A stretch of 64,000 nucleotides of DNA from positions 1,658 through 65,657 of the forward strand of contig CAYTTR010000009.1 in NCBI GenBank assembly GCA_964440805.1, in the 5' to 3' direction. Below, one piece after another: positions 4,215 through 61,734 of this stretch (the stretch's first letter is position 1; every line of letters begins with the position of its first letter). The position numbers were made by a program, and so were the translations under genes. The notes beneath the pieces are model-generated. The model was not told the origin of the DNA. It saw only the letters and a program-made list of their open reading frames with translations, and did no database searches. Source of the DNA: an uncultured Eubacteriales bacterium (lineage in GTDB: Bacteria > Acidobacteriota > Aminicenantia > Aminicenantales > Aminicenantaceae).

Positions 4215-4219
4215 GAAGG

Positions 4220-5200: not shown

Positions 5201-5329
5201 AAAATGACTGCCCTTTAAGGCAGCAATGCTTTAAATGGATAATCAAACAGAGGATCTTCCTTGAAAATATTTGGTAAAACATATATTTTAAATTTCTATC
5301 AACTTATAATTACAACGATGAGGATTTAA

Positions 5330-8590: not shown

Positions 8591-9457
8591 TTGCCCATTT
8601 TAATTAAATCAGTTAAAAGCAAAAACCCTATTACTTCTTTTTTCCAAATTACCAGCGGGATTATCTTCATCTTTCTAATCATTTTTTTCCTAACAGCCGC
8701 CAGAGTTCCTATCCAAGAAACAACAGTGGAAACATGTTCTGTATGTCATGAGGAAGCAGGACTAAAATTCGCTTCCAATCCCCACTCATCAATTGAAAAC
8801 TGTTCTCTCTGTCACCCTGGGGAAAAAACTCATTTGGAAGAAGGAGGGGGTTCCAATATTTTTGCCTTTAAAGCTGAAGATATACCTAATCAAAAAACTG
8901 AAATATGCCTTCAATGCCACAGTAAAGAAGCGGGCCGATATCAATCAAGTCCTCATGGAAAATCTTCCTATGACTGCCTGACTTGTCACCAGATTCACCA
9001 AGAAAACTCCTTTCCATCGCTTCTAAAATCCGAGGAGACAAAAACATGTTCTTCCTGTCACGGGGAAATCTTGTCCCTTTTTCAGCTTAATGAAAAACAC
9101 CGTCTGCTTGAAGGAATCCTGAGTTGTTCAAGCTGTCACGACCCCCATGGCCCCTCGACCCAGACAATTATGGCCGGATTCAAGCATGAATCATGCCTTA
9201 AATGTCACCGGGATAAAGGAGGTCCATATCTTTACGAACATGGGGCCTCCCGTATAGAAGGGTGCACATCTTGTCACGAAGTTCACGGATCACCCAATCA
9301 GCATCTTTTGATAACCCAAAGTGTGGCTGATCTATGTTTCAGTTGCCATGGGGCTGCTCCTGCCTGGCATTCCCGCTTTGATTCCTATTCTACCAACTGT
9401 ACGGTTTGCCATACGGCAATCCATGGCTCCAATCTCAGTAAGATTTTCTTGAAATAG
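8591..9457 (+). CDS. periplasmic decaheme c-type cytochrome (MtrA/MtoA/OmaB-like)
   Basis: 288 aa; N-terminal hydrophobic anchor or signal sequence; 10 CxxCH motifs (CSVCH, CSLCH, CLQCH, CLTCH, CSSCH x2, CLKCH, CTSCH, CFSCH, CTVCH); first gene of a tightly spaced three-gene cluster. Confidence 0.75.
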   Translation: MPILIKSVKSKNPITSFFQITSGIIFIFLIIFFLTAARVPIQETTVETCSVCHEEAGLKFASNPHSSIENCSLCHPGEKTHLEEGGGSNIFAFKAEDIPNQKTEICLQCHSKEAGRYQSSPHGKSSYDCLTCHQIHQENSFPSLLKSEETKTCSSCHGEILSLFQLNEKHRLLEGILSCSSCHDPHGPSTQTIMAGFKHESCLKCHRDKGGPYLYEHGASRIEGCTSCHEVHGSPNQHLLITQSVADLCFSCHGAAPAWHSRFDSYSTNCTVCHTAIHGSNLSKIFLK

Positions 9458-9467
9458 GAGGAAGAGA

Positions 9468-11330: not shown

Positions 11331-11345
11331 AAACAGGAGGAGGCT

Positions 11346-13487
11346 ATGAAAAATATACTTAGGATTTTGATGATTACTGTAATATTACCGGGAGCAGTTG
11401 TTTTCATTGCCGGAGCCAAAACGGATAATTTTACCGGACTCCTGTCCCTGGTTTCCCATGCTGAAAAGCTCTGGCAAAGTTCAGGCCATGCCGACTCAAA
11501 AGCAGAAGCCTTTACCCATTGGGATGAGGAAGGTTCTATTCCCACTTCTTGCGCCAAGTGCCACTCCACACCTGGTTTTCAAGATTTTCTGGATAATGGT
11601 GAGGTTAACAGCCCAGCCCCACTGGGCACCACAATAGAATGTGAAGCCTGTCATATAAACAAGGAAACCGGAGCTGTTCGGGAACATACAGCGGTTACTT
11701 TTCCCTCTGGAGCGGTAGTAGAGAACCTGGGACCTGAAGCTCTCTGTATGGAATGCCATCAAGGAAGAGCTTCAAAAAAAGATGTTGACATGACTATCGA
11801 CAGCGCCGGTGTCATTGATCCGGACACCCCTTCTTCTTTGTTAAGGTTTGTCAATATCCACTACTATGCGGCTGCCTCTACCCAGTTGGGAACACTTGTT
11901 GAGGGAGGATATGAATATCAAGGAAAATCATATGATGCCCGGTTTTCTCATTTAACCGGCTATAATGCCTGCATAACTTGTCATAATCCTCATTCTCTTG
12001 AAGTGGAATTGGGTCCTTGCCATACCTGCCATGAAGGAGTGAAAGACCCCAAGGATATCCGTTATTACGGGTCGTTTGTTGATTATGACGGAGACGGTAA
12101 TATCACTGAGGGTATGTTTTACGAAATTGAAGACATTAAAAACATCCTTTATCAGGTAATGCAGAGTTATGCCCGGGAAGTGATTAATATTCCTATTGTT
12201 TACGATTCTCATACTTATCCTTATTTCTTCACCGATGTAAACGGGAATGGAGAGCCTGATCCCGAAGAGTTGAACTACGGAAACCGGTATACTTCTTTTT
12301 CCGCCCGCCTGCTCCGGGCAGCTTATAATTATCAGGTTGCCCAAAAAGATCCCGCGGCTTACGCCCACGGCGGCAAATATATTATCCAGATTCTTTATGA
12401 TTCAATAGAGGATCTTAACCGTCAGCTGGCTTCTCCCCTTTCTTTAAACGTAGCCAGAGTAGATGAAGGTCATTTCGACGGATCATCTGAAGCCTGGAGA
12501 CATTGGGATGAAGACGGCGAAGTTCCAAGTTCATGTTCAAAATGCCATAGTGCCGAAGGCCTTGCCTATTTTCTGGAAAATGGAGATTTGGCTTCCCAGG
12601 AAATTTCCAATGGAATGTTATGTGCCACTTGTCATACAACCCCTCCTCATGTGAGACGAGTCGGTCAAGTGACCTTTCCTTCCGGCGAAGTAGAAGACAT
12701 GGGAGACACTTCCAATCTTTGTCTTCAGTGCCATCAAGGACGGGCTTCAAAATATTCCGTGGAGTCAACTATTGCCTCTTCTCCCGGGCCTTACGGGTTT
12801 ATAAATATCCATTACTTTCCGGCTGCAGCTGTTCTTTTCGGCTCTGAAGTCAAAGGGGGATTTGAGTACGCCGGGAAAATCTACGCCGGCCAGCAAACTT
12901 TCCCCAATCATTTAGGCAAATTCGACACTTGTGTTGAATGTCATATGGGAACAAAAAGTGAAGCCAAGCCTTACGACCATCAAGGGAGACTCCACAATGT
13001 CCAAACACCTAATCCTGAAGATTGTGTCTACTGCCATGGACAGGATATTTCCCAGCCGTATCCGGGCGCAGATCCGGCTAAATTCAGTTTTGAGGGGATC
13101 AGGCCAGCTTCCATTCCCGACTTCGATGGGGATGGAAACCGGAGTGAATCTATTAAAGACGAAATTAAGGGTCTGGAAAAAGAACTATATGCCTGGATAC
13201 AAAAATATGCTTTGGAAAAACTGGGAGCTCCCATTGTTTACGATTCTCACAACTATCCTTATTTCTTCAATGACCTCAATGCCAATGGCAAAGTCGACCC
13301 CGGGGAAAATATTTATCCCAATCAATTTAGGCAATTTAATACCCGGCTTCTCAAAGCAGCCTATAATTTTCAGCTTAGTAAAAAAGAACCCTGCGGATAT
13401 ATTCATAATGCCTGGTATGTGGCTCAGCTCTTGGTGGATTCAATTATCGACTTGGGAGGAGATTCGGCTAAATACTCCTGGCGATAA
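11346..13487 (+). CDS. large decaheme c-type cytochrome with internal tandem duplication (candidate outer-surface MtrC/OmcB-like cytochrome)
   Basis: 713 aa; signal peptide; 10 CxxCH (CAKCH, CEACH, CMECH, CITCH, CHTCH, CSKCH, CATCH, CLQCH, CVECH, CVYCH). The two ~350-aa halves share W(R)HWDE(D/E)G..P.SC.KCHS, VYDSH.YPYFF.D.N.NG..DP.E and RLL(R/K)AAYN(Y/F)Q. Confidence 0.7.
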   Translation: MKNILRILMITVILPGAVVFIAGAKTDNFTGLLSLVSHAEKLWQSSGHADSKAEAFTHWDEEGSIPTSCAKCHSTPGFQDFLDNGEVNSPAPLGTTIECEACHINKETGAVREHTAVTFPSGAVVENLGPEALCMECHQGRASKKDVDMTIDSAGVIDPDTPSSLLRFVNIHYYAAASTQLGTLVEGGYEYQGKSYDARFSHLTGYNACITCHNPHSLEVELGPCHTCHEGVKDPKDIRYYGSFVDYDGDGNITEGMFYEIEDIKNILYQVMQSYAREVINIPIVYDSHTYPYFFTDVNGNGEPDPEELNYGNRYTSFSARLLRAAYNYQVAQKDPAAYAHGGKYIIQILYDSIEDLNRQLASPLSLNVARVDEGHFDGSSEAWRHWDEDGEVPSSCSKCHSAEGLAYFLENGDLASQEISNGMLCATCHTTPPHVRRVGQVTFPSGEVEDMGDTSNLCLQCHQGRASKYSVESTIASSPGPYGFINIHYFPAAAVLFGSEVKGGFEYAGKIYAGQQTFPNHLGKFDTCVECHMGTKSEAKPYDHQGRLHNVQTPNPEDCVYCHGQDISQPYPGADPAKFSFEGIRPASIPDFDGDGNRSESIKDEIKGLEKELYAWIQKYALEKLGAPIVYDSHNYPYFFNDLNANGKVDPGENIYPNQFRQFNTRLLKAAYNFQLSKKEPCGYIHNAWYVAQLLVDSIIDLGGDSAKYSWR

Positions 13488-13502
13488 AGGAAGCATCCTC
13501 AA

Positions 13503-13700
13503 AACCGTGATAACGTGATAAGAGGAAGGGTATGGGATTCGTCCCCCGCTCGATTCCTTAGTGAGGAATCTCGCTCCCATTCGGGCTTCGCTCTCCTCTC
13601 CTCCGGAGAGAAACCATGCCCGCTCTGCCCTCATAGGGGATTCCTCATCCCATACCCTTCCTCTTCTTTAATAATACAATCCCTATCACGGAAATAGGGA
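13503..13700. repeat. GC-rich intergenic element with nested perfect inverted repeats (MITE-like or structured RNA)
   Basis: 19-bp perfect IR AAGAGGAAGGGTATGGGAT (13520-13538) / ATCCCATACCCTTCCTCTT (13647-13665); outer IR CCGTGATA (13505-13512) / TATCACGG (13684-13691); internal hairpin GATTCCTTAGTGAGGAATC. Confidence 0.5.
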
Positions 13701-13792
13701 TGCTTGCGGCAATAAATCTTTTTTGACAAAAGGGGGCTCGAATTTTATTATGGTTCCTCTTTATAAAAAAAATATCTGAAGGAGGAATAGCT

Positions 13793-15157
13793 ATGTTTAT
13801 AGGCAGAGGAAAAAAATCTTTCTTTTTAAGTTTTTTCTTATCATTATTGGTCATTACTCCTCTTCTCTTTTCAATTGAAGAGGTAGCCGGGGTCAAGGAT
13901 ACAAAAAATATCCTGCCTGAAAAAGAGCGGGCCAGAGTCTGGAATGAATGGCTTCGCTGGAGACTTGATAATATAATTCCGGAACTTATGAGGCGGGAAG
14001 GGATTGATATGTGGCTGATTATCAATCGTGAATATAATGAAGATCCGGTCTATCTCAGCCTGATGCCCTGGCCGACTATGGCTGCCCGCCGGACTTCCAT
14101 TTTGATCTTTTTTGACCACGGAGATGAGAAAGGAGTAGAAAGGCTTTCCGGAAGTTACTATGACACTCCTGGGTGGTATAAAACAACCTGGAAAGACAAG
14201 ACAAAAAAACAGTTTGTAAGTCTTGCCGAAACCATCCGGAAACTAAATCCCCGAAAAATCGGCATCAATGTTTCACCTACATTCAGGTTCGGTGACGGAT
14301 TGACTGCCAGTCTGAAAGACAAGCTGATAGAGCACCTGGGGCCGGATCTTTCAAAAAGACTGGTTTCAGCAGAAAATCTGTGTCTCGGCTGGCTGGAAAC
14401 CCGTAGTCCCATGGAAATCAGTGTCTACCGACACATCTGTGGCATCGCTCATGATATCATCGCTGAGTTTTTTTCAAACCAGGTTATCACGCCAGATATC
14501 ACCACCACTGATGATGTCATCTGGTGGATTCGCCAGAGAATTACAGACCTGGGACTGGATACCTGGTTTCAACCATCTATATCAATCCAGCGTTATGCCA
14601 CAGAGGCAGAGAAATATAAAGAGAATCCAAAGGTCATCCGGAGGGGAGATCTTCTTCATTGTGATGTAGGCATCAAGTACTTGGGACTTTGTACCGATAT
14701 GCAATGGCAGGCTTATGTTTGCCGGATTGGAGAAAAGAATGCACCTGAAGGAATAAAACGTGCCTTCGAACGGGCTTTAAAGGTCGGCGAAATCTTTATG
14801 GCCGAGTTTAAAGCCGGCCGGACCGGAAATGAAATCACTGATTCAGCCATGGAAAAAGCTGCTGCTGCCGGTTTACGGCCTTTGATTTATTCACATCCCC
14901 TGGGTTTACACGGTCACGCAGCCGGAACTTCAATGGATGCCCGGCCTGAGGATAGGGCTCCGGAAGGAATTCGCCTGGAAATGGAATATCCTCTTAATTA
15001 CAATACCTGCTACGCCATTGAATTCAGCAGCACCTCCAGCATTCCGGAATGGGATGGACAAGACGTCCGGATAGGTTTCGAAGAAGATGCTGTCTTCACT
15101 GAAAATGGCTGCCGCTATATTGACGGCCGCCAGAAAAAGATTCTTCTAATAAAGTGA
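13793..15157 (+). CDS. secreted M24-family metallopeptidase (Xaa-Pro aminopeptidase/prolidase-like)
   Basis: 454 aa; signal peptide; pita-bread fold metal-ligand motifs (HPLGLHGHAAG, EMEYPL, YAIE). Confidence 0.55.
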   Translation: MFIGRGKKSFFLSFFLSLLVITPLLFSIEEVAGVKDTKNILPEKERARVWNEWLRWRLDNIIPELMRREGIDMWLIINREYNEDPVYLSLMPWPTMAARRTSILIFFDHGDEKGVERLSGSYYDTPGWYKTTWKDKTKKQFVSLAETIRKLNPRKIGINVSPTFRFGDGLTASLKDKLIEHLGPDLSKRLVSAENLCLGWLETRSPMEISVYRHICGIAHDIIAEFFSNQVITPDITTTDDVIWWIRQRITDLGLDTWFQPSISIQRYATEAEKYKENPKVIRRGDLLHCDVGIKYLGLCTDMQWQAYVCRIGEKNAPEGIKRAFERALKVGEIFMAEFKAGRTGNEITDSAMEKAAAAGLRPLIYSHPLGLHGHAAGTSMDARPEDRAPEGIRLEMEYPLNYNTCYAIEFSSTSSIPEWDGQDVRIGFEEDAVFTENGCRYIDGRQKKILLIK

Positions 15158-15177
15158 ACTCCCAAGGATAAAAAAGA

Positions 15178-15657
15178 TCAAGTTATTACTTTGTCAATAT
15201 CTTTTTCGCCATAATCGGCAAATTCCTGAGCCAGAGCATATTCGCTTTTCAACATAAGAAAGTGGCTGTGCTCGATCCGGCTGAGATACTCTAAAATAGA
15301 CCTGCTTTTGCCTTCGGTTTTCCGGGAGAATTCTGCATAAAACCTCTCAGCAGCTTCTTCTGCTTTCATTGCCTGGTTTAATATATCTACTAAGGAAGTA
15401 TCGGCCTTTAAGTTTATTGAAGGAATTAAGACATCATCTGCTTTTTCCGGAATATCAAGATTTTCCTGAGGATATAATTTTTCCGTCAGTTTTTCCAATA
15501 TCTGCCTGTGCTTTTCTTCTTCAAAAGCCAGCATCCGGAATTTTTCTTTAAGAAGCGGATTCTGGAGGCGGGATGAAATTTCAGAGTATACTTGGTAGCT
15601 GTCAATTTCTGACCGTATTGCCAGCCCGAGGAGTTCAGGCACATCTTTATCTATCAT
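15178..15657 (-). CDS. ferritin-like diiron-domain protein (rubrerythrin-like, no rubredoxin domain)
   Basis: 159 aa; paired E..H four-helix-bundle motifs (EEEKHRQILEKL, RIEHSHFLML); paralogous to 25398..25865 and 33852..34304. Confidence 0.55.
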   Translation of the reverse strand: MIDKDVPELLGLAIRSEIDSYQVYSEISSRLQNPLLKEKFRMLAFEEEKHRQILEKLTEKLYPQENLDIPEKADDVLIPSINLKADTSLVDILNQAMKAEEAAERFYAEFSRKTEGKSRSILEYLSRIEHSHFLMLKSEYALAQEFADYGEKDIDKVIT

Positions 15658-15721
15658 TGATTTGCTCCTTTACAATAAATTGGCTTATCCATCTTTGAAG
15701 TTAATTCTAATTACCCAAAAA

Positions 15722-17143
15722 TCAACCTTTCATAACTCCAACCGGAATTACCTTGGCCACCAGACTGCCCAATCCGGCCCGGTGGGATACCTGGACTACT
15801 TCATCAACATCCTTATAGGCTCCGGAAGCTTCTTCAGCCACACCTTTCCAGGAAGTAGATTTAAGAGAGATACCTTTATTTTCCAAATCTTTTTTTATTT
15901 CTTCTCCTCGAAATTTCCTTAAAGCTTCATGCCGGGACATCAAACGCCCTGCACCATGAGCAGTGGAACCGAAACTGAGTTCTTCAGCTTCTTTTGTGCC
16001 GCAGAGAATATAGGAAGCTGTGCCCATGCTTCCGGGAATAATAACGGGTTGTCCAACAGTTCTTAACGTCTCAGGAATTTCTTGGCGGCCGGCACCGAAA
16101 CTCCTGGTGGCTCCTTTCCGGTGAACACAGAGCCTGAGATTTTTGCCCTCAATCCGGTGAACTTCGAATTTAGCCACATTATGACAAACGTCATAAACCT
16201 GATCCATTCCCTTATCTGTTCCCAAAATTTTTTTAAATACATCTCTTACCCAGTGAGCAATCATCTGCCTGTTGGCAAAGGCGTAATTTACTGCAGCACA
16301 CATGGCTTTATAATATTTTTTCCCCAAATCAGAGTTTATGGGAGCATAGGTAAGCTCCCGGTCAGCTAAATGCTTAGTACCGAAAGTATTCTCCATCTGC
16401 CTGATATAGTCGGAAGCTACCTGGTGACCAAGTCCCCGGCTTCCGCAATGGATCATAACCATGATTTGTCCTTTTGAATGGATTCCGAAAACCCCGGCTG
16501 TTTTGGAATCAAAGATTTCTTCAACCTGCTGAATTTCCAAGAAATGATTTCCTGCTCCCAGAGTCCCCAACTGGGGCAATCCTCTTTCTTTGGCCCTCCT
16601 GGAAACACAGCCGGGATCAGCATCCTTCATCCTTCCATATTCTTCTGTCCTCTCCAGATCTCTCCGAGTGCCAAAGCCATTAGTTACAGTCCATTCTGCT
16701 CCCCGGCGCAAAACTTCTTCCAACACTTGAAAGCTGATCTCTTTTGACCTCCCTTTTCCTACTCCGGCAGGAACCTGATTAAAAATTCCATTCATCAAAG
16801 CCCCCAGGTTGTCTCTGAGTTCATCAACTTTGTAATCTGTCTTTAACAGCCGGACTCCGCAGTTTATGTCATACCCCACTCCTCCCGGAGAAATCACTCC
16901 TTCTTCAATGTCAAAAGCAGCCACACCCCCTATGGGAAATCCATACCCTTGATGTCCATCGGGCATAAGAAAGGAAGCTTTCCTGATACCGGGGAGACAG
17001 GCAACATTTACTGCCTGGTGCAGTGTTTTATCCTTCCTCATGCTTTCCAGAAGCTTGGATGAAGCATAGATAAAAGCCGGCACCTTCATCTTGCCTTCTT
17101 CCGGGATTTTCCAAACATTTTCTTTAATTTTTTTTATATTCAT
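15722..17143 (-). CDS. rtcB: RNA-splicing ligase RtcB
   Basis: 473 aa; hallmark RtcB motifs (HQGYGFPIGGVAAFD, GAGNHFLEIQ, CGSRGLGHQVA, HNVA). Confidence 0.9.
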   Translation of the reverse strand: MNIKKIKENVWKIPEEGKMKVPAFIYASSKLLESMRKDKTLHQAVNVACLPGIRKASFLMPDGHQGYGFPIGGVAAFDIEEGVISPGGVGYDINCGVRLLKTDYKVDELRDNLGALMNGIFNQVPAGVGKGRSKEISFQVLEEVLRRGAEWTVTNGFGTRRDLERTEEYGRMKDADPGCVSRRAKERGLPQLGTLGAGNHFLEIQQVEEIFDSKTAGVFGIHSKGQIMVMIHCGSRGLGHQVASDYIRQMENTFGTKHLADRELTYAPINSDLGKKYYKAMCAAVNYAFANRQMIAHWVRDVFKKILGTDKGMDQVYDVCHNVAKFEVHRIEGKNLRLCVHRKGATRSFGAGRQEIPETLRTVGQPVIIPGSMGTASYILCGTKEAEELSFGSTAHGAGRLMSRHEALRKFRGEEIKKDLENKGISLKSTSWKGVAEEASGAYKDVDEVVQVSHRAGLGSLVAKVIPVGVMKG

Positions 17144-28285: not shown

Positions 28286-29460
28286 TTCTCCTCCTCCAAG
28301 TACTCCGAATACAGAGGCGACATCTGTCTCAGTCTTTCAATAATGGGAGGAAAGACTTCCAGGAGATAATCTATGTCTTCCCTTGTATTTTCCTCCACAA
28401 AACTGAACACCAAAGAACCCTGGGCCACAGAATGATCCAGTCCCATGGCCAGAAGAACATGAGAGGCTTTTAGGGCTCGGGAAGTACAGGCTGAGCCGCT
28501 GGAAGCTGCGATTCCCTTCATATCGAGATTGAGCAACATAGCCTCTCCTTCAACAAAACGCACACAAAAACTGGCATGGTGAGGAAGCCTTCTTTCAGGA
28601 TGCCCGGTCAGAATAACATGGTTAACTTTTTTGGGAAGAAGTTTGATCAAACGATCGCGAAGAGGAAGAATATTTGTTTCTCTTTCCTTCATCCTCTGCT
28701 GGGCAAGTTCTGCAGCCCGGCCCATCCCAACTATTCCAGCCACATTTTCAGTTCCTGCCCGGAGGCCACTTTCCTGGATTCCTCCATGAATCAAAGGAAT
28801 TATTCTGGTTCCTTTTTTTATAAAAAGAGCAGCTGCTCCCTTAGAACCATAGAACTGGTGACCAGCCAAACTCATTGCATCAACCTTCAAGTTTCGTACA
28901 TCAATGGGAATATTTCCAGCAGCTGCTACGGCATCAGAGTGAAAAAGAACTTCCTTCTCCTGACAAACAGCAGCAATTTCTTTTACGGGCTGACTGGTGC
29001 CAACTTCACTGTTGGCCGTCATTACCGAAACAAGGATGGTATCAGGAGTAATCATTTTCTCTACATCTTCGGGATCAATCAATCCATGTGAATCACAAGG
29101 AACATGACTCAACTTAAATCCCATTTTTTCAAGCTGGAGGCCTGAGTGCAGAACAGATTGATGTTCAATAGAAGAAAGTATAATATGATTACCTTTCTTC
29201 CGATTAGCCAAGGCAAGCCCTTTTATGGCCATGTTATTGGACTCAGAGCCGCTGGAAGTAAAATATATCTCTTCGGGCTTGGCTTTTAATAACCTGGCGA
29301 CTTTTTCCCGGGCCTGTTCTATAGCCTTGTAAGCTTGCTGGCCAAAGGAGTGGAGACTCTGTGGATTACCGAAATGATTATTGAGATAAGGAACCATCGC
29401 TTGCCCTACCTCTTCTGAGATAGGTGTAGCAGCGATATGATCGAAATAAATCCTTTTCAT
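28282..29460 (-). CDS. iscS: cysteine desulfurase IscS/NifS
   Basis: 392 aa; class V aminotransferase fold; PLP Lys region and catalytic SSGSACTS loop. Confidence 0.85.
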   Translation of the reverse strand: MKRIYFDHIAATPISEEVGQAMVPYLNNHFGNPQSLHSFGQQAYKAIEQAREKVARLLKAKPEEIYFTSSGSESNNMAIKGLALANRKKGNHIILSSIEHQSVLHSGLQLEKMGFKLSHVPCDSHGLIDPEDVEKMITPDTILVSVMTANSEVGTSQPVKEIAAVCQEKEVLFHSDAVAAAGNIPIDVRNLKVDAMSLAGHQFYGSKGAAALFIKKGTRIIPLIHGGIQESGLRAGTENVAGIVGMGRAAELAQQRMKERETNILPLRDRLIKLLPKKVNHVILTGHPERRLPHHASFCVRFVEGEAMLLNLDMKGIAASSGSACTSRALKASHVLLAMGLDHSVAQGSLVFSFVEENTREDIDYLLEVFPPIIERLRQMSPLYSEYLEEEK

Positions 29461-53288: not shown

Positions 53289-54116
53289 TCAAACTGACTT
53301 CTTCTTGTTTTCCGAGACTAAAAACTTGCCGCAGTTCTCACAAATATAAATATCATTACTTCCTTCTATGGCGGAACTCATGCTGGTAGCCAGATTTATA
53401 TTACAACTTTGACATACTCCATCAATAACTTCAGCTACCGCATATCCATAGCGTTCCATAAGCCTGTCGAAGCGGTCGAGAAGGGAAGCATCCAGTTCCA
53501 TTCTGATTATTCCAGCTTGTTTTTTCAGCTTCTCTTTCTCTCCCTCTGAGGCATTCTTCAAGGCCATTTCGAGTTCTTGGAGCTTCCAGAGGAGACCTGC
53601 CCGGTGGATAATTTTATCATCCTGTCGAGGAAGAAAAAGGGTTATTTCAGAAAGGACATCGTGCAGCTCTTTCTGATTACTGGCAGAAAAAAGTCTCTTG
53701 CGAAAATCCGGCCTTCTTAGGAACTGGGCTAATCCAGCAAAAAGATGATTAAAAAGTCCCGGAATAGTTGGGTTCCAGATAATCATAATTATCAGATGGA
53801 CTTTTTTCTTATCAATGGAATCAAAATCTATTCCCTCAGTCGAACGGCCGACAACCACTTGAATATCCTCTCCAGCGTCTACCCTGGCATGGGGGAGAGC
53901 CACATGATGTCCAATGGCTGTTGATTCCAATCTTTCCCGGTCACAAAGCCGGGTCAGAAGAAGCTTTTTGTTTTTGATCAATCCCTGGCTGGCTAAGACT
54001 TCCAGTAATTCATCAAAAGCCTGGATTTTATCATTTGCCTTAAGATTGTAAATAATTTGGGACGGTTTCAAAAAGTCGGAAAAATGAGAACTACTTAAAA
54101 GGTTTCGCTTTTCCAT
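53289..54116 (-). CDS. PTS EIIA(Ntr)/PtsN-like domain fused to C-terminal coiled-coil C4 zinc ribbon
   Basis: N-terminal PTS_EIIA_2 domain with phosphorylatable His region (IGHHVALPHARV). C-terminal ~100 aa with CQSC...CENC, resembling PF02591-type zinc-ribbon proteins. Confidence 0.55.
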   Translation of the reverse strand: MEKRNLLSSSHFSDFLKPSQIIYNLKANDKIQAFDELLEVLASQGLIKNKKLLLTRLCDRERLESTAIGHHVALPHARVDAGEDIQVVVGRSTEGIDFDSIDKKKVHLIIMIIWNPTIPGLFNHLFAGLAQFLRRPDFRKRLFSASNQKELHDVLSEITLFLPRQDDKIIHRAGLLWKLQELEMALKNASEGEKEKLKKQAGIIRMELDASLLDRFDRLMERYGYAVAEVIDGVCQSCNINLATSMSSAIEGSNDIYICENCGKFLVSENKKKSV

Positions 54117-54271
54117 TAACTAATTATTTTAACACAAAATATAGCTGCGATTAAAGAAAATTTTAATTAACCTCTTTTTTTTCTGAACAACCCGAGATAC
54201 AAAATAGATTGGAGAATTTTCTGTTAGTGCAATATAATAACAAAAGTGGGATAAAAAAGTAGGAGAAAGTT

Positions 54272-54856
54272 ATGGAAGAAATTTTAGCCAAAATTTCTTT
54301 AAGCCAATTAGCTCTCATACCGGCTCTTATCTGCCTGATCTTGTTTTTCAGAGCCCTTTTCTCTAAGGGAAACTCTTATTTTCTCAAACCGTTTTTATTG
54401 CTTCTTGTATTTTTTGCCCTTTTCATTTTTCTCAATGAGCAAGATTACGGAAAACAGACTCTTCTTGAACTCAAAGAAAAACACTTCCCCAAAAAAATTC
54501 TTCCTCTGAACTACACTGTTAACCAAGTTTCTTCTGGAGGATTACAAAAAAAAATATATATTTTCAACGACCCTAGACCCAAAATAACTTTGGTTGCCAT
54601 GGAAGGGGGGAAGTATTTTGTCATGAAAAAAGTTGATGCTCTCAATGCAGTACTCCGCAAACTAAAACTCCCTCCGGTCAAAGAGGGAGTGGCGGAATTA
54701 GCCACTGTTACAGGCTCAACTCTTGATACCGCAAAATTCCGCTGGGAACGTTACAATGGAGGAACATTAACTGTAATCAAGGAACTCTGCCGGGACAAAG
54801 ATGCTCTTACTTTTTACCATTGCATCACTTCCATCATTGTGGAAAACATTTATTAA
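54272..54856 (+). CDS. hypothetical membrane-anchored protein
   Basis: 194 aa; two N-terminal TM helices plus a soluble domain; no family recognised. Confidence 0.35.
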   Translation: MEEILAKISLSQLALIPALICLILFFRALFSKGNSYFLKPFLLLLVFFALFIFLNEQDYGKQTLLELKEKHFPKKILPLNYTVNQVSSGGLQKKIYIFNDPRPKITLVAMEGGKYFVMKKVDALNAVLRKLKLPPVKEGVAELATVTGSTLDTAKFRWERYNGGTLTVIKELCRDKDALTFYHCITSIIVENIY

Positions 54857-55027
54857 CCTGTATTATTGGGAAATCAAGATATACGTAACCCATTTCAGAA
54901 AACCAATACATATTTCTGACTTGCAAGCCTTTTATTATAAAATAGCTTGAAAATAATGAATCTTGCCTATTGGGTCTGTTCAGATAAATAAAAGAAAAGA
55001 GGCGGAATGAGTGAGGAAAGCAACCGG

Positions 55028-56164
55028 TTATGAAGAAGAGTGTTTTTTTGGCCAAAAGCTTGCTGCCAAAATAAGCAGGACCAAGGCCAAATAAAAACCG
55101 CTTATCATCTTGAAGAAAGTCCCCCTATAAAGTATTCTTTTAAAGAGAAGACTCTCACCCGGACGAGGTAGAGGGAGCGGGTCCCATAATAATCCGTATT
55201 GCCGGCAAAGACCTTTAATATAAAGAAGATGAATCACCGGAATCCCCTGCTCCATCATTGAAAAAATCATTCCCTTTCGCAGAGAAGCAGTCGGTATGTC
55301 CGGCTCAACCAAGCCCGGTTTAATTTCAAGCACGGCCGAGTCTGTTCCCAGATTGGCATAACTCCCCCCGATATTTACAAAAGCCTTAATCCCGTCGGGG
55401 TTTTTTGAAAAATAACGGTAAAGCCTCAGCCTTTCTTGAATATTTCTCTTCAGATCAGGCTCCTGGATAAAAGGGATTTCGCTCTTTTTTATTTCTTCCA
55501 GGAGAAAAGCCTTTCCTTCTTCACTTATACCCCCCGCCGTATCTTTTTCTCCTCCTAATGAGACCGCCACCGGTTCGAAATCAAAGATTCCGGCTTTTCT
55601 CAGACAGGAATAAATTTTCAACCAATTCATTTCCGGGATATTGGCTCCCCACTGCGATGCTCCCAGTGAATATATCGATAAGGGTTTGACTTTCATGGCT
55701 TTGGCCGCTGATAAAACCGCTAAAATCAATGAAGGAAAGGAAGCAGAAGCACCTATAACCACTTCGTCCCCGGCTGTCACTCCGGCCCGGTGAAAAAGAT
55801 AGACCATAAGAGCGGCGAAATTGGGATTGGAGGTTGTTCTTTTTGCCTCCAACTGGCCGAGTGTGGTAGTGATTGAAGAATGCTTGATTCCGATGATTCC
55901 GGTTAAATTGGGATCAACCTCTGGTTCCAAAGGAATCTCCTTTATAATCCGGCATTTCTTAACAGACTCCAAGGCTTCAGCCATGGTCAAAGCAGCCAAC
56001 CGCATTTCTTTGGCCAGTTTTTCCTGTCTCTCCCCAGGAAAAAAATAAACCCAGAAAATAAAAAAAATGCTCAAAACAAAGACAATACTCAGGTGAATTT
56101 TTCTTCTGCTGTCTTCTTTACAAGAACAGATGATTCTCCTCCGGAAAACATTAAATTTTCTCAT
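55028..56164 (-). CDS. poly-gamma-glutamate system accessory membrane protein (PgsA/CapA-replacing family)
   Basis: 378 aa; N-terminal TM anchor; no CapA metallophosphatase motifs; placement directly downstream of pgsB-pgsC, as in lineages lacking CapA. Confidence 0.45.
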   Translation of the reverse strand: MRKFNVFRRRIICSCKEDSRRKIHLSIVFVLSIFFIFWVYFFPGERQEKLAKEMRLAALTMAEALESVKKCRIIKEIPLEPEVDPNLTGIIGIKHSSITTTLGQLEAKRTTSNPNFAALMVYLFHRAGVTAGDEVVIGASASFPSLILAVLSAAKAMKVKPLSIYSLGASQWGANIPEMNWLKIYSCLRKAGIFDFEPVAVSLGGEKDTAGGISEEGKAFLLEEIKKSEIPFIQEPDLKRNIQERLRLYRYFSKNPDGIKAFVNIGGSYANLGTDSAVLEIKPGLVEPDIPTASLRKGMIFSMMEQGIPVIHLLYIKGLCRQYGLLWDPLPLPRPGESLLFKRILYRGTFFKMISGFYLALVLLILAASFWPKKHSSS

Positions 56165-56168
56165 AGAA

Positions 56169-56606
56169 TTATCCCATTCTGAAAAGAAGACGAATCAGGA
56201 CAAAAGTAATTGAAGAGGCAGAAACCAAGGCGGCAAGGGTAGGAAGAATTTTTTGCCTGGAAAGATTATTAGCCAGAAGTCCTGGAATAATCCAGCCAAT
56301 GGCCTTGAACTCCGGATCAACCGGAAAATATTTCGGAGCAAACAATGAAAAAAGCACTCCCCAGAAAATTCCAAGAAGAAGGAACATAATGAACCTTCTT
56401 TTTCCAAAAAGAATCAGATAATTTTCAAAGAGACGGTAACAAAACAGGCTCAAAAATGATATCACCAAAGTAGCCAGGCACTTCTCTGGCTGGTCAAGAT
56501 AATAGGCGAAATACACCGGAACAATGAGTCCGCCGGGATATATATTAAAAATCTCCGAGAAAAGAAGAGCCACCAGCAGCCCTGTTATCAGCGTTTCAAG
56601 GATCAC
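56169..56606 (-). CDS. pgsC: poly-gamma-glutamate biosynthesis membrane protein PgsC/CapC
   Basis: 145 aa, 4-5 TM helices; LVALLFSEIFNIYPGGLIVPVYFA...FGKRRF matches the CapC family; overlaps pgsB by 11 nt. Confidence 0.75.
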   Translation of the reverse strand: MILETLITGLLVALLFSEIFNIYPGGLIVPVYFAYYLDQPEKCLATLVISFLSLFCYRLFENYLILFGKRRFIMFLLLGIFWGVLFSLFAPKYFPVDPEFKAIGWIIPGLLANNLSRQKILPTLAALVSASSITFVLIRLLFRMG

Positions 56607-57801
56607 GTTTTTCTCCTTTTTCTTCCCAGAAATCTACCATCTCTCTTCCCAGGCCACCGATATTCCCCAGTCCAACCAGAATGCCAGCTTCTTTCTCCTT
56701 CGAAAAGATGGTTTCAAGGATATGCTGCGCCCTCATGGATTTTAAAACCACCATCTTTCCCTTAAAGAAGGAGGCCGTCTTTCTATGAAACACATTGGCT
56801 TGTTTTCCTATTAAATAAATTGATTTAATTTCCGGGAAAAGGTTTTTTCTCAAAGCTTCTATCCATTGATAAGTCCGGTCTCCCCGGTCTGGCCTGAGGC
56901 TTAAAAGACCGCTTATTTTTCTGCCTTCACTCCAGCTTGTTTGCTTTATCCGGTCAAAAATAAGGCGGGTTGACTCCGGGTCATTGGCAGCAAAAATACT
57001 GACACAAAGCCAGGGTTCAAGAGAAGGGCTAACTTTCAACCACCAGGCCTTCAATGCCCCGAAATCAGGAGAATAGGACATCATTCCCCGCCGGATTACT
57101 TCAGACTCGATTCCCAGCAAACCTGTCACAGCCTCTGAGAGCCTGATGTTTTCTTCAAACATGAAGCCAGGGTTGATTTTCTCCCGAAAAAAATTCACTT
57201 GATTTACCTCTGGGCTTACCTGTATAAGGTGTGATTTCTTCCGGAAAGCTGCCTCTTTAAAAACAGAATAACATTCCTCCTGAGGAATGACCACGGTGGA
57301 TTTCCAGGGTATAGCCAGAGAAAGGGAAGAGGCTATTTTCTCCATGGTTTCACCTTGCTGAGGAATATGATCAAGACGGACATTAGTAATCACCAGATAA
57401 TGAGGCTTAAAAATCTGACATGATTCCATCTGAAGACACTCAGGATGAATGCTCATCAATTCACAGATTGAAGCCTTAGCTCCTGATTGAGAACAATGCT
57501 TGAGGAACCTTTTGACCTCCAGTATAGAAGGCAGGCCTCGCCGCTTTATTTCCTCTTCCTTTCCGTCCGGATATATTATAACCGGCTTAGAACCGGTTAT
57601 TTTGGCCATAGGCGAAAAACCGGCCTCTCTCAGAATAGAAGTAATCATCCTGGTCACAGTGGATTTTCCTCTTGAACCAGTGACTGCAATCCGTAAAGGA
57701 ATGGAATTCTTCCTGCGGGAAAGAAAATATTTTTCTCCCCAAAGGTAAAGGCAGTATATTCCAATGCCTGTTGATGAAAGCAGTAACTCACTCCAGTACA
57801 T
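56596..57801 (-). CDS. pgsB: poly-gamma-glutamate synthase PgsB/CapB (Mur-ligase-family amide ligase)
   Basis: 401 aa; N-terminal TM; Mur ligase P-loop VTGSRGKSTVTRMI. Confidence 0.8.
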   Translation of the reverse strand: MYWSELLLSSTGIGIYCLYLWGEKYFLSRRKNSIPLRIAVTGSRGKSTVTRMITSILREAGFSPMAKITGSKPVIIYPDGKEEEIKRRGLPSILEVKRFLKHCSQSGAKASICELMSIHPECLQMESCQIFKPHYLVITNVRLDHIPQQGETMEKIASSLSLAIPWKSTVVIPQEECYSVFKEAAFRKKSHLIQVSPEVNQVNFFREKINPGFMFEENIRLSEAVTGLLGIESEVIRRGMMSYSPDFGALKAWWLKVSPSLEPWLCVSIFAANDPESTRLIFDRIKQTSWSEGRKISGLLSLRPDRGDRTYQWIEALRKNLFPEIKSIYLIGKQANVFHRKTASFFKGKMVVLKSMRAQHILETIFSKEKEAGILVGLGNIGGLGREMVDFWEEKGEKRDP

Positions 57802-57863
57802 TAAACCTGGCTCGTGCCCTGAAAATTTAGGCGGTTTAAATCCTTCTCTGAATTAACCCCGAT

Positions 57864-60197
57864 TTAAAAAGGATGAGGGGGCCTCACCGTCTGATCTCCC
57901 TCTCCTCTTGTCTTTCTGAGGACCCTCAGCAGTGTTCTGGAGAAAATATTGGCTAAATCACCTCTTTCATACTTTGCTTCCAGCAACCTGGAGAGCAGTT
58001 GAAGCATTTGGTTTCTTCCAGCTTCTCCCCACAGGCAAGCTTCATTAACAATCATTAAATGGCCGGTGCCAATTTCTTTTTTTAATAAATCCAGTTTCTG
58101 AAAATAACCCCCGGGTGATTCTTCTGCCTGCAATAGAAGACCTATGGCTCCGCTCTTCTCCTTTACTAAATCCAGAATCTCTTTTCCCGGAACTTCTGCG
58201 CTTAGAAACACAACCGGTTTCTTTGACTCTCTGAGAAGAATTTTGACTTCAGTTTCACTGCTGTTCTTTATCATCAACAACAGCCCTGCCGAGTTTAAGG
58301 CTTTGAGCCATTCTTTTCCTTTTTCGCTTAAGCTGTCTTCATTAAAAATTATACCGGGATTATCAAGGAAAAGAAAACCTATTCCCTGGTCAGCCAAAAC
58401 TCCGGCCCAGCGGTGATTCTCCTGGAAAAGCTGGATACTATTAAGGCCGGAGATAACCGTAGTTTTGCCCTGACGGACAGAGCCTGAAATACGGTTTGAC
58501 GAGGTGTAATAGACCAGGCCATCGGTTTTATTCACTTTCTCCTTTCCATCAATGATTTTTTCCAAAAGATCCAGAAAAGCCTTATCAGCAGCCAGTCCCT
58601 TGTTTATCTGAAGAAGAGACATCTGGACATCAACAAGGGAGTCTTTGGAATTTCCGTGGTTTTTTACGACATTTTCAAGTGGACTCAGCCGGTAATTCAC
58701 CAAATCCTGATAACGCAATTGAAAAGTTTCTTCCCTTAAAGGCAGAATAAAATCTCTAACTTCATTTGCCAGAGCCACTGTAGCAGCACAAACAAAATCA
58801 CCGGTTCTCTTTAGAAGTTCTGGTTGAATCAGATCATATTCATCCCTGCTATGATGATACTTCAAGAAAGAATCCTCGGTGATGGCAAAAAAGGCAGGGA
58901 CTCCTTTCATTAAGAACGGTGTGTGATCCGAACCTCCTGGGCCTCCCCGGCCGGGAGTAAGATATTCCATTGTTTCCTGAGGTATACTTCCCTCAAGGAA
59001 AGCCCAAACTTCTGGAGCATAATACTTTCCTCCAAGGGAAATCTTGCCGCTTCCAATTCCCACCATATCCAGATTGATATTGGTTACAGCTTTTTCCAGA
59101 GGAATAGCAGGATTGTCAGCGTAATGCCTTGAACCCAAAAGCCCCTGCTCTTCACCGGCCCATAAAGCAAAAACCACGGTCCTTTTCGGTTTAAAGCCTC
59201 TCTGTTTCATCGCCCTGGCCACTTCCATAACCACCGCAGTACCCGAGGCATTGTCATTGGCTCCATTCATCACATCTCCCATGGGAGTGATCCCCAGATG
59301 ATCCAGGTGAGCTCCGATTATAATGTATTCATCCTTGAGCTTTTTATCCGAGCCGCTGATTTTGGCCAGGACATTTTTGGTTGGACGTTCCGGGTCAAAA
59401 ACAGACCGCACCGAAATAAAAACTTTAATACCGGTGTTTAAAGATTGGGGCTGCAAATCTTTATTAATCCGGCTGAAGGCTGTTCTCAAGTCGATAGGAA
59501 GATCCTTTAAAATAAACTCAACCACCTTGTTTTCAACACTCAAAATAAAGAAATCAGGCTTGTAGATTTCCTTTTCTGTTCTAAACCGGAAATAACGGCT
59601 CTGGCTTGAAGGCAGTTGAAACAAAACAACTCCAGCCGCACCCAGTTTCTGAGCAGTTTCTATTTTACTCTTCAGGCTGGATTCTTCTTTAAACTCTTCT
59701 CGGAGCTTAGAGGGAGCTCCTTCAGTCAAAAGAACCAGTTTACCTTCAATCTCTATTCCTTCATAGTCATCATATTCTTTATCGGGAGCATGGATGCCGT
59801 ACCCAACAAAAACGATTTCTCCGACTAAACTGCCGGAGCCGGAATATCTCTGGACTCTCCAGTCTTCTCCATAATAAAAACTCCTTCGTTCCCTGGGAGA
59901 TATCACTTCAAGAACAACTCCTTCTTGGATATGGCTGTGTTCAATAGTAAAATTCTGAAAATAGATCCCTTCGTCTCCGGCCGGCTCAAGACCCCATTCC
60001 TTGAATTTTGAGGCTATATATTCTTCGGCCATGACTGCCCCGGGCTGGCCGCTTTTACGGCCTTCCATCTCATCAGAAGCCAGAACCTTGATATAATTCA
60101 AGGCCGCCTGGGGATCAAATTCAGCCTTCTTTTCTTCCCCCGCAAGAGGAGTTATAAGAAGAAATAAGATTAGGAACAGATTAAGGTGTTTTTTCAA
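57864..60197 (-). CDS. secreted M28-family zinc peptidase with PA domain and large C-terminal domain (glutamate carboxypeptidase II-like architecture)
   Basis: 777 aa; signal peptide; PA-domain insert; M28 metal ligands (GAHLDHLG, NDNASG, EEQGLLGS, HHSRDEYD); ~300-aa C-terminal extension. Confidence 0.65.
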   Translation of the reverse strand: MKKHLNLFLILFLLITPLAGEEKKAEFDPQAALNYIKVLASDEMEGRKSGQPGAVMAEEYIASKFKEWGLEPAGDEGIYFQNFTIEHSHIQEGVVLEVISPRERRSFYYGEDWRVQRYSGSGSLVGEIVFVGYGIHAPDKEYDDYEGIEIEGKLVLLTEGAPSKLREEFKEESSLKSKIETAQKLGAAGVVLFQLPSSQSRYFRFRTEKEIYKPDFFILSVENKVVEFILKDLPIDLRTAFSRINKDLQPQSLNTGIKVFISVRSVFDPERPTKNVLAKISGSDKKLKDEYIIIGAHLDHLGITPMGDVMNGANDNASGTAVVMEVARAMKQRGFKPKRTVVFALWAGEEQGLLGSRHYADNPAIPLEKAVTNINLDMVGIGSGKISLGGKYYAPEVWAFLEGSIPQETMEYLTPGRGGPGGSDHTPFLMKGVPAFFAITEDSFLKYHHSRDEYDLIQPELLKRTGDFVCAATVALANEVRDFILPLREETFQLRYQDLVNYRLSPLENVVKNHGNSKDSLVDVQMSLLQINKGLAADKAFLDLLEKIIDGKEKVNKTDGLVYYTSSNRISGSVRQGKTTVISGLNSIQLFQENHRWAGVLADQGIGFLFLDNPGIIFNEDSLSEKGKEWLKALNSAGLLLMIKNSSETEVKILLRESKKPVVFLSAEVPGKEILDLVKEKSGAIGLLLQAEESPGGYFQKLDLLKKEIGTGHLMIVNEACLWGEAGRNQMLQLLSRLLEAKYERGDLANIFSRTLLRVLRKTRGEGDQTVRPPHPF

Positions 60198-60317
60198 AAT
60201 AACCTCCTACTTTTTTTATACCTGAAATAAGAGACGTTATTATACCTAATCAGGAGAAAGATAAAAAAGAAAATTTATTGCTTGAAAAAAGTTTATGGAT
60301 AAATAAAGTTAAATTGA

Positions 60318-60659
60318 CTTCAATATAAAATCTATTCCGGCGAAGAATATCGAATTGCCATTATGGACCAGGGAAAAGTTCTTGCCGTAGGGACACTGGA
60401 AGAATTGATTCAGATTGTGGGCGAGAAAGACATCACCTATATTTGCGGAGATTTCAAAGCAAATCAGGCTGGAGAAATCCTTGGTTCGATTAAAAAAGAA
60501 TCCATCCTTTCTCTTCAGGATGGTAAGGCCGTCCTGGCTGTACCTTTGCTGCTGGAAAAATTCTTTAAAACCGGCCTTGTTATCCACGACGTTTCTATCA
60601 AGAAACCCAGTCTGGAAAGTGTTTTTCTAAAACTGACCGGAAAGGAACTGAGGGAATGA
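60318..60659 (+). pseudogene. ABC transporter ATP-binding protein remnant (C-terminal ~110 codons only)
   Basis: The reading frame opens just after a TGA at 60315 with ...SGEEYRIAIMDQGKVLAVGTLEEL, the post-H-loop region of ABC ATPases. Walker A, signature and Walker B are absent. Confidence 0.6.
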
Positions 60660-61734
60660 GAAATCTCTTCCTTCTGATATCAAAAGACCTCAGAAGAAGA
60701 TGGAAAAACCCGGCCGTAATCATTGGATTCATGTTAATTCCCGTTGTCTTTACTTTTATTTTTGGGGCTGTCTTCGGAAAGGAAGTTGAAAAGAGCTTAA
60801 CTCAGAAAAATATTTGATTGAGGAAATTGATTCTGAAGAAAAAGTCAGATCTCGTGTTCTTATTATTCCTGAAGGATTTTCTGATAGAGTTAAGACTGGA
60901 GAAAAAACAAATCTTACCATAAAAAGGCATCCTGATAGCGATCCTCAATATTCACAAGCTGCTTATTCCCACGTGTTGAAGGCCATCATCAAGACGATCA
61001 CGGGACTTGTTGGATCAGTTCAATTAGCAGAAGAGAAAGATGAATCTCAGGGTATTGAAGAGATTTTTTTGAGTTACCAGCCGCAACGATTAATCACTCT
61101 TCGCTCCGAACTGGCAACTCCCAGAAAAGCCATTCCTTCGGGCTATAACCACACCATCCCGGCTATGACCGTTATGTTCATCCTTTTTACTGTCCTTATG
61201 TACGGAGGAATCACCTTGCTTGAAGAAAGAAGACAAGGACAACTTGAACGAATAGTGATCAATCCAATCTCCTTCTCTCTTCTGTTAGCTGGAAAATGGC
61301 TGAGCCGATTTCCTCTGGGAATGTTCCAACTAACAGTGCTCTTTCTTGCAGGATACCTTCTTTTCGACTTTAACCTGGGCTCTTCCCTTTTTTCTGTACT
61401 GTTGATATCCCTATTTTTCTGTAGGGCCATAGCCGGACTTAGCTTGCTTATGGGAAGCCCTTTTGAAAAAGAAGAGCTTTTAGTGGTTGTCAGTATCCTC
61501 TTGGCCAACCTGATGGCCGGATTGGGAGGATGCTGGTGGCCTCTTGAATTAGTTCCACCTGCCATGAAAACCGTGGGCTTATTCTTTCCCACTGGCTGGG
61601 CAATGGAAGCTTTTCACAAGTTGATATTCTTTGGAGAATCATTAACTGGAGTAAAGACTCATATCCTGGTCTTAAGCGGATTCGCCTTGGTTTTTCTTAC
61701 TCTGGCTGTCAAATTTTTCCGCTGGAAAAAATAA
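60657..61734 (+). pseudogene. ABC-2 type permease disrupted by frameshift (TM1 fragment 60657-60815; remainder 60814-61734 in a different frame)
   Basis: N-terminal TM1 ORF ends at TGA 60813-60815; a downstream ORF in another frame carries the extracytoplasmic loop and five TM helices. Confidence 0.5.

Follow-up and report, generated by a model that had tools for sequence, protein, structure and literature searches.

Few families of enzymes are known to cut poly-gamma-glutamate (PGA), namely PgdS, GGT/CapD and PghP-like proteins. Such enzymes are of interest for controlling the size of industrially produced polymer, and for depolymerizing the capsules of pathogens, Bacillus anthracis among them. 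In Bacillus, PGA hydrolase genes such as pgdS and capD are found beside or inside the synthase operon (PMC4497714). Here we describe a locus in a 64-kb stretch of contig CAYTTR010000009.1 (assembly GCA_964440805.1; hereafter the window, 64,000 nucleotides (nt) in all) which, read from its sequence, is a CapA-less PGA system of an uncultivated Aminicenantes bacterium. Three synthase genes are preceded by the gene of a zinc peptidase of family M28, and this arrangement is conserved among diverged relatives. What is the role of the peptidase? On the sequence evidence we hold an involvement in PGA metabolism to be evenly balanced, and cleavage of the gamma-glutamyl bonds of the polymer itself to be quite possible, though not the expected outcome.

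Four co-directional minus-strand genes fill positions 55028-60197 (coordinates are exact and taken from the open reading frame list):
57864-60197, minus strand: peptidase gene, TTG start; 777 amino acids (aa), a predicted exported PA-M28 protein with an M19-like C-terminal domain
56596-57801, minus strand: pgsB; 401 aa, membrane-anchored Mur-ligase-type poly-gamma-glutamate synthase subunit
56169-56606, minus strand: pgsC; 145 aa, small polytopic membrane subunit
55028-56164, minus strand: gene of a TIGR04332 "poly-gamma-glutamate system protein"; 378 aa

The pgsB and pgsC genes overlap by 11 nt, a gap of 4 nt separates pgsC from the TIGR04332 gene, and 62 nt lie between the peptidase gene and pgsB. 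The first-pass annotation, made from the sequence alone, had named the Mur-ligase-type pgsB and pgsC correctly, as both exceed their NCBIfam cut-offs. PgsB matches the TIGR04012 equivalog model with 267.7 bits (cut-off 222.7, E 1e-79, residues 14-391 of 401 aligned) and the Pfam family Mur_ligase_M (PF08245, E 1e-14); its translation is hydrophobic at the N-terminus and shows the P-loop GSRGKS at residues 42-47. PgsC matches TIGR04011 with 114.6 bits (cut-off 96.45) and PF14102 with 121 bits (E 5e-35). PgsB, as a membrane-anchored, ATP-dependent amide ligase, would form with PgsC the synthase core that polymerizes glutamate at the membrane.

The third gene had been read not as CapA but as a membrane-anchored protein of the type that replaces it, and this reading holds. 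NCBIfam assigns the product to TIGR04332 and not to an unrelated family (333.7 bits against a cut-off of 100, E 1e-99, model positions 5-306 of 307), and there is no Pfam match at E up to 0.01, hence no CapA/PGA_cap domain. In the predicted structure (predicted local distance difference test, pLDDT, 84.4) transmembrane helices at residues 18-41 and 349-369, one at each end, flank an alpha/beta domain of ~300 aa; an outward orientation of this domain is suggested by the basic termini. No similar solved structure was found (best Foldseek E 4e-3, template modelling (TM) score at most 0.30). The family comprises 1434 clusters at 50% identity and reaches past Aminicenantes, for example to Halanaerobium praevalens (WP_014552654.1). 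The order pgsB-pgsC-TIGR04332 was constant wherever the retrieved contig extended far enough upstream of the TIGR04332 gene. Natural PgsC-TIGR04332 fusions (P0280 and P0313), in which a CapC domain at residues 7-122 is joined to a TIGR04332 domain, offer Rosetta-stone evidence that supports a physical role of the protein in the synthase complex. We propose that it would be the third synthase subunit, taking the place that PgsA/CapA has in Bacillus. An additional domain of ~300 aa without a Pfam match is present in other TIGR04332 proteins, of 618-721 aa.

The conserved linkage was established from two directions. In a peptidase-first sample, one genome per species was scanned with a peptidase profile and then searched locally by tblastn with the window proteins; an orthologue was counted as informative if full-length, at least 46% identical and followed by enough downstream DNA. 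The pgsB-pgsC-TIGR04332 genes lie directly downstream on the same strand in 13 of the 15 informative orthologues, which are from Aminicenantes, and two are unlinked. The peptidase orthologues thus occur mostly beside pgsBC. Linked orthologues from the genome scan are loci L001, L002, L004-L009 and L012, with L011 the exception; additional linked loci on long contigs came from a protein search (L161, L164, L166 and L167; L165 is the same contig as L005). These orthologues have diverged to 47-64% identity, yet adjacency, strand and order relative to pgsB are kept, with a peptidase-pgsB gap of 14-506 nt. Because the outer flanks differ between loci, the four genes can be said to stay together as a block. 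The unlinked L011 copy (9971-12280, 46% identity) reads KTNRVGD in place of KYHHSRD, by which the metal ligand H448 and the adjacent Tyr are lost, and is probably inactive and relocated.

The longer peptidase-pgsB gaps of 200-310 nt found in L004, L005, L090, L100, L121, L122 and L132 are filled by one to four copies of a palindromic repeat, TGTAGGGGCTTGATTTATCAAGCCCACC, resembling repetitive extragenic palindromic (REP) or miniature inverted-repeat transposable (MITE) elements. This repeat is absent from the 62-nt gap of the window.

In the synthase-first sample, a metagenome scan with the TIGR04332 profile gave 47 informative loci, and the peptidase precedes pgsB in 22 of them. The upstream neighbors of the peptidase-negative loci are variable, and the gene can be present or absent between the same flanks: L161 has the order aminotransferase-peptidase-pgsB, and in L110 the aminotransferase stands directly before pgsB. 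In a neighbor-joining tree of concatenated PgsB+C+X, albeit a crude one, peptidase-positive loci include the deepest branches and the negatives form several separate groups, which suggests an old linkage with repeated loss. The position of the peptidase depends on pgs and not that of pgs on the peptidase, the signature of an accessory gene; since about half of the related pgs loci are without it, we regard it as an optional accessory. The first-pass proposal of a co-encoded PGA depolymerase or processing enzyme therefore retains support from gene context, but the peptidase is an optional and not a constant partner, and the resemblance to glutamate carboxypeptidase II (GCPII) on which the proposal leaned does not hold (see below).

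The peptidase itself is made up of four parts:
60138-60197, minus strand: putative signal peptide, residues ~1-20, MKKHLNLFLILFLLITPLAG followed by EEKK; helix 2-19 and a low-confidence linker in the predicted model
59442-59852, minus strand: PA-like (apical) insert, residues ~116-252
58758-59441, minus strand: M28 catalytic core, residues ~253-480
57867-58757, minus strand: C-terminal domain, residues 481-777, a (beta/alpha)8 barrel with homology to M19 membrane dipeptidases

At the N-terminus, MKKHLNLFLILFLLITPLAG resembles a cleavable Sec signal peptide, from which we infer export; having no lipobox cysteine, the protein does not appear to be a lipoprotein. The Pfam PA match is weak (residues 138-196, E 4e-4, 20.8 bits against a cut-off of 23.9), some homologues carry a precomputed PF02225 match, and the predicted fold, which matches PA-containing aminopeptidases, indicates that the insert is real. 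The M28 match (PF04389) is strong, with 159.5 bits against a cut-off of 21.3 and E 1e-46 over residues 275-471. The earlier description of a secreted 777-aa protein with PA and M28 domains, encoded upstream in the same orientation, agrees with the reading frame, the signal-like N-terminus, the M28 match and the PA fold.

Alignments to the Aeromonas/Vibrio aminopeptidase and YwaD place the metal ligands at H297, D315, E350, D377 and H448 and the general base at E349, with Y447 beside H448. Across 32 family members the ligands and E349 do not vary, and at least 90% of these members have Y447; five distant homologues keep all of the ligands, the general base and Y447. Because of this conservation the peptidase is very probably an active dizinc exopeptidase. 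A role like that of glutaminyl cyclase, prompted by weak matches to such enzymes, was ruled out, as all five dizinc ligands are kept. Next to the Tyr447-His448 pair, K446 (window 58860-58862) is Lys in at least 94% of 32 members of the pgs-linked clade and Asp in five of five unlinked distant homologues, a charge switch that is specific to the clade, as is Q351, which follows the Glu-Glu pair. Both residues are possible specificity determinants, and the K446 switch is no more than a lead toward an acidic substrate.

A protein search yielded more than 120 full-length homologues (49-81% identity), and those named for an organism are Aminicenantes or Acidobacteriota metagenome-assembled genomes (MAGs), except for one labelled only "bacterium". 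The TIGR04332 homologues with a source name are likewise nearly all from Candidatus Aminicenantes or Acidobacteriota MAGs, and the window is accordingly assigned to an uncultivated member of this lineage.

The C-terminal domain has the form of an M19-like barrel. Pfam M19 gives a near-threshold match (residues 518-664, E 1.6e-5, 24.7 bits against a cut-off of 26), and a 14-member family profile, searched against the PDB, matches GliJ (5lx0) and human renal dipeptidase (1itq) with E ~5e-7. In the model of residues 481-777 eight strand-helix units alternate. The M19 dipeptidases thus share with it a homologous (beta/alpha)8 barrel, but the window domain is without their bridging Glu and His ligands and its HxD motif is broken. 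The motifs GxEG, LTH, DLSH and HxD in the GliJ alignment are those we take to be metal-binding and catalytic sites. IEG of GliJ is LKG in the family consensus and LNS in the window, so that the bridging Glu is replaced by Lys or Asn; LTH becomes LL-D, with Asp for His; DLSH becomes lvkG in the consensus and IKNS in the window, with Gly or Asn for His; and the N-terminal HxD motif reads SLVD in the window protein (LVD in place of HVD). Across the family the domain has no invariant histidine. Judged by these motifs the domain is a pseudo-enzyme, a barrel predicted to be unable to bind the binuclear zinc center, and it most likely serves binding or oligomerization.

GCPII cleaves gamma-linked glutamates from folyl-polyglutamate, and its helical C-terminal (TFR_dimer) domain supplies Lys699 and Tyr700 to the glutamate pocket. 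The first-pass annotation had seen this architecture in the window protein and taken from it a gamma-glutamyl specificity. A bacterial enzyme of the GCPII type (MEROPS M28B) would be a carboxypeptidase removing C-terminal gamma-linked glutamates through a GCPII-like S1' pocket. The likeness is genuine to the extent that a PA insert within the M28 domain is common to GCPII/PSMA and the transferrin receptor, that a third C-terminal domain follows, that GCPII and GCPIII are detectable homologues (E 1e-10 to 1e-9 by sequence, Foldseek E 1e-23), and that a Tyr-His pair stands at the last metal ligand as in GCPII, where it is Y552-H553. Both the Tyr-His pair and the PA insert are, however, also present in aminopeptidases such as YwaD, and the insert in PaAP and 2ek8 as well. 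The sequence alignments to GCPII and GCPIII are limited to residues 275-379, and fold alignments to GCPII, GCPIII and the transferrin receptor give TM scores of 0.34-0.43 with root-mean-square deviations (rmsd) of ~10-19 A; GCPII itself superposes poorly (TM 0.35, rmsd 14-17 A) compared with bacterial aminopeptidases at TM 0.6-0.7. Pfam finds no TFR_dimer domain (PF04253), so the helical dimerization domain that completes the pocket is absent and the M19-like barrel stands in its place, and the N-terminus resembles a signal peptide and not the type II membrane anchor of GCPII. The same PA-M28-M19-like build also occurs in other phyla without pgs neighbors. Because the C-terminal domain, the best matches, the N-terminus and the distribution all differ from what GCPII would lead one to expect, the argument from architecture to gamma-glutamyl specificity fails. 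What stands of it is the PA insert and an apparently intact dizinc M28 core; the extension is not homologous to the third domain of GCPII, and the resemblance is, on sequence and predicted structure, topological only: PA insert, M28 core, non-homologous third domain. We consider a GCPII-type carboxypeptidase very improbable.

A second set of hydrolases bears on the role of the peptidase. Past the TIGR04332 end of the cluster, relatives frequently have a Peptidase_C69 gene in convergent orientation, together with one or two AstE/AspA-like genes (succinylglutamate desuccinylase/aspartoacylase-type, M14/M99-like), in a module that also includes a DUF6305 protein and a polytopic membrane protein of ~429 aa:
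Loci with the accessory module downstream of the TIGR04332 gene: L004-L006, L012, L081, L086, L087, L089, L096, L100, L107, L118, L122, L154, L161, L164-L167, and L168 at 9109-17119

When duplicate loci are removed and those with 2.5 kb or more of downstream DNA are counted, C69 and/or AstE/AspA-like genes lie within 5 kb in 18 of 25 peptidase-positive loci compared with 1 of 11 negative ones (Fisher p ~8e-4, uncorrected for shared ancestry). In H. praevalens the module follows pgsB-pgsC-TIGR04332 in the absence of an M28 gene, and its proteins are 40-56% identical to the Aminicenantes ones, above the identity of the pgs genes (31-42%). None of the C69, AstE/AspA-like, DUF6305 or membrane-protein genes is found in the 64-kb window. 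A set of exported or membrane amidohydrolases thus tends to accompany PGA systems of the TIGR04332 type; within this set the M28 protein is specific to Aminicenantes and is the sole representative in the window, and the AstE/AspA-like-DUF6305-membrane protein-C69 module is a candidate for PGA degradation and uptake.

The AstE/AspA family hydrolyzes N-acyl-glutamate and N-acyl-aspartate. The amidases and the C69 dipeptidase could be the true PGA degraders, with the M28 protein doing another job in the pathway, such as clearing short gamma-Glu peptides or acting on a non-PGA surface substrate. Apart from the acyl-glutamate chemistry, this alternative has in its favor that C69, AstE/AspA-like, DUF6305 and membrane-protein genes stand beside pgsBC-TIGR04332 in both Aminicenantes and Halanaerobium, and that the M28 gene does so in Aminicenantes only. 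The phage PGA hydrolase PghP, moreover, is a carboxypeptidase-A-like zinc enzyme (PMC4497714). However, in the window and six other de-duplicated peptidase-positive loci (7/25) the 5 kb downstream of the TIGR04332 gene contain neither C69 nor AstE/AspA-like genes, so that there the M28 gene encodes the only hydrolase known beside the cluster, and it is also the gene most tightly placed against pgsB. We judge this alternative quite improbable. A wider reading, which we put forward as doubtful, would make the PA-M28-pseudoM19 protein the founder of a PGA-dedicated family of metallo-exopeptidases and one arm of a PGA turnover island. This island, comprising M28, AstE/AspA-like amidases, C69 dipeptidase and a membrane transporter-like protein, would accompany CapA-less TIGR04332-type synthases in at least two phyla, and diderm sediment bacteria would keep PGA, extracellular or periplasmic, as a managed reserve of glutamate and nitrogen.

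A further alternative is that the protein is an ordinary secreted aminopeptidase that scavenges protein and peptides in a peptide-fermenting lineage, is merely syntenic with pgs in a peptidase-rich neighborhood, and at most feeds amino acids, glutamate included, to the cell. Its closest characterized relatives are the PA-domain M28 aminopeptidases of Aneurinibacillus (AM-1, 2ek8), B. subtilis (YwaD, 6hc6) and Pseudomonas aeruginosa (PaAP, 8acr), the best matches over residues ~30-480. In the AlphaFold model (pLDDT 85.9, predicted TM score 0.80, from a 32-sequence alignment) the best PDB fold matches of the N-terminal 480 residues are 2ek8 (TM 0.72) and PaAP (0.58-0.65), and by sequence AAP and YwaD match residues 262-478 with E 4e-16 to 8e-16. 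These enzymes share with the window peptidase the PA insert, the same five metal ligands and, on its predicted export, secretion; they differ in having neither the ~300-aa M19-like domain nor a known link to PGA, and their identity to it is 17-23%. Among its Pfam and NCBIfam matches, which comprise M28, M20, M19, PA and related families only, there is none to the families of known PGA hydrolases (PgdS NlpC/P60, GGT/CapD, PghP).

Several observations weigh against a role in PGA metabolism, and most of them are what scavenging would lead one to expect. The nearest characterized enzymes are broad-specificity aminopeptidases that cut alpha-peptide bonds, and we know of no M28 aminopeptidase that cleaves the gamma-glutamyl bonds of PGA. 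The peptidase and its domains are neutral to acidic by net charge and isoelectric point, a crude test that gives no pointer to polyanion binding. The same PA-M28-M19-like architecture stands without pgs neighbors in Bacteroidota, Gemmatimonadota, Calditrichota and other Acidobacteriota, the peptidase is missing from 25 of the 47 related pgs loci and from Halanaerobium, and one of the two unlinked orthologues (L163, in the closed genome CP070750.1) is intact. All of the linked loci come from one lineage, so their counts are not independent. A terminator-like hairpin at 57872-57888 lies between the peptidase gene and pgsB, although 10 such sites were found in the region where 8.7 are expected. 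Scavenging is also favored by the other peptidases, of families M54, M14 and C69, encoded among the neighboring genes of relatives.

Against mere synteny, adjacency, strand and order to pgsB are kept in 13 of 15 diverged orthologues while the outer flanks change. Paralogues and distant homologues of the same class have no such linkage: some 67 distant homologues (at most 40% identity, from other phyla or Aminicenantes paralogues) have no pgs genes within flanks of up to 10 kb on each side. The peptidase gene also co-occurs with the C69 and AstE/AspA-like module, whose own link to pgs extends across phyla. We consider scavenging unlikely. In the reading that we favor, the protein would be a Sec-exported dizinc exopeptidase and an optional accessory of the PGA system; above all, it is from gene context that we infer its substrate. 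Acting in the periplasm or on the cell surface, it would take terminal glutamates off PGA or PGA fragments, leading to chain trimming, release or recycling, and could be a functional counterpart of Bacillus PgdS, GGT and CapD. Its partners in many relatives may be the AstE/AspA-like amidases and C69 dipeptidase whose genes flank the cluster at its other end.

Transcription signals around the peptidase gene are as follows:
60198-60276, minus strand: peptidase upstream region, with TATAAT at 60244-60239 and a GGAGG ribosome-binding site at 60207-60203, 5 nt before the TTG
57872-57888, minus strand: terminator-like hairpin and T-run, GGTGAGGCCCCCTCATC CTTTTTAAAT, which overlaps the end of the peptidase gene (final codons and stop)

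Upstream of the gene, only this region can still be aligned with L161, the closest relative (77% nucleotide identity, up to window 60276); L161 also has GGTATAATAA. In a promoter and terminator scan of 54200-60700, counts were no higher than in shuffled sequence. The short gap and the promoter-like TATAAT and ribosome-binding site conserved with L161 make co-transcription of the peptidase gene and pgsB plausible, but it is not established, because the hairpin overlaps the peptidase stop codon.

Beside the peptidase promoter lies the remnant of an ABC-2 transporter (window 60363-61734, plus strand). Its ATPase part (60363-60659) encodes the C-terminal 98 aa only, with no space for an N-terminal half, and the permease that follows (ATG ~60656) is interrupted by a frameshift close to 60810, its reading frame continuing at 60814-61734 (ABC2_membrane_3 of Pfam, matched from profile position 82). 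At the same place L161 has a class-V aminotransferase with a twin-arginine (TAT) signal, and similarity to the window ends ~80 nt upstream of the peptidase start. The region looks like a rearrangement breakpoint or an assembly join.

Further peptidase genes stand divergent and directly upstream of the M28 gene in L165 (5210-5896), L167 (5319-5879), L166 (2666-5659) and L154; they encode M54 archaemetzincin-like proteins (186-228 aa, HEIGHAFGLRHC motif) or a 997-aa M14 carboxypeptidase. Upstream of the pgs block, whether or not the peptidase gene is present, several loci encode a protein of class-V aminotransferase fold that has a twin-arginine-like signal, SRRxF[MV]K:
Loci with the class-V aminotransferase: L161 at 3938-5269, L081, L100, L167; L099, L108-L110, L120

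Encoded next to a polyglutamate synthase, an exported pyridoxal-phosphate enzyme could be relevant to D/L-glutamate chemistry; the window's aminotransferase paralogue, at 28768-29424, is only 25-27% identical. On the other side of the block the window has a convergent neighbor:
54272-54856, plus strand: orf194, encoding a hydrophobic N-terminus and a domain of ~130 aa

The orf194 product has no Pfam or NCBIfam match. In many loci, peptidase-positive and peptidase-negative alike, a homologue directly follows the TIGR04332 gene; as such homologues are missing from other peptidase-positive loci, orf194 is probably conserved synteny and not a core part. Beyond it, window 53289-54116 (minus strand) encodes a 275-aa protein with a phosphotransferase system EIIA(Ntr)-type (PtsN-like) domain and a C-terminal C4 zinc-ribbon region resembling CdsZ, which is syntenic with the pgs block in several relatives at 62-88% identity.

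How, then, does the locus compare with described PGA systems? No published report of an association between M28 and pgs was found in full-text literature searches, most subscription journals being outside their coverage. Among the closest known systems, that of H. praevalens is an example of the same synthase type, with the same pgsB-pgsC-TIGR04332 order and a TIGR04332 protein 42% identical to that of the window. It has no M28 gene, and its cluster is followed by genes for an AstE/AspA-like protein, a two-component system, DUF6305, a membrane protein, a second AstE/AspA-like protein and C69, all absent from the window. If the locus is read correctly, a widespread uncultivated sediment lineage would make PGA, and pgsB, pgsC and the TIGR04332 gene offer a defined minimal set in which to study its synthesis and export without PgsA/CapA. 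A conserved M28 enzyme with a seemingly intact active site at such CapA-less clusters is a cheaply testable candidate for a new PGA-cutting family, and its AstE/AspA-like and C69 partners in relatives are likewise candidates.

The Bacillus pgsBCA(E) and capBCA(DE) loci, with PgdS (NlpC/P60) or CapD (GGT family), resemble the window in their orthologous PgsB and PgsC (NCBIfam equivalog models), in a third membrane protein after PgsBC, and in the gene of an exported hydrolase immediately beside or inside the cluster (PMC4497714). The window differs in having a TIGR04332 protein for PgsA/CapA and no PgsE, in a host that is presumably a diderm acidobacterium, unlike Bacillus, and in the position of the peptidase gene, which is upstream of pgsB where the Bacillus hydrolase gene is downstream. 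Its hydrolase candidate, a PA-M28 protein with an M19-like domain that appears dead, is unrelated to NlpC/P60, GGT or PghP. The synthase type, already modelled in NCBIfam, and the co-location of hydrolase and synthase genes in Bacillus are thus known; new are the build of the candidate hydrolase, PA-M28 joined to a pseudo-M19 barrel, its tight and ancient linkage to CapA-less pgs genes in Aminicenantes, and its co-variation with the AstE/AspA-like and C69 module.

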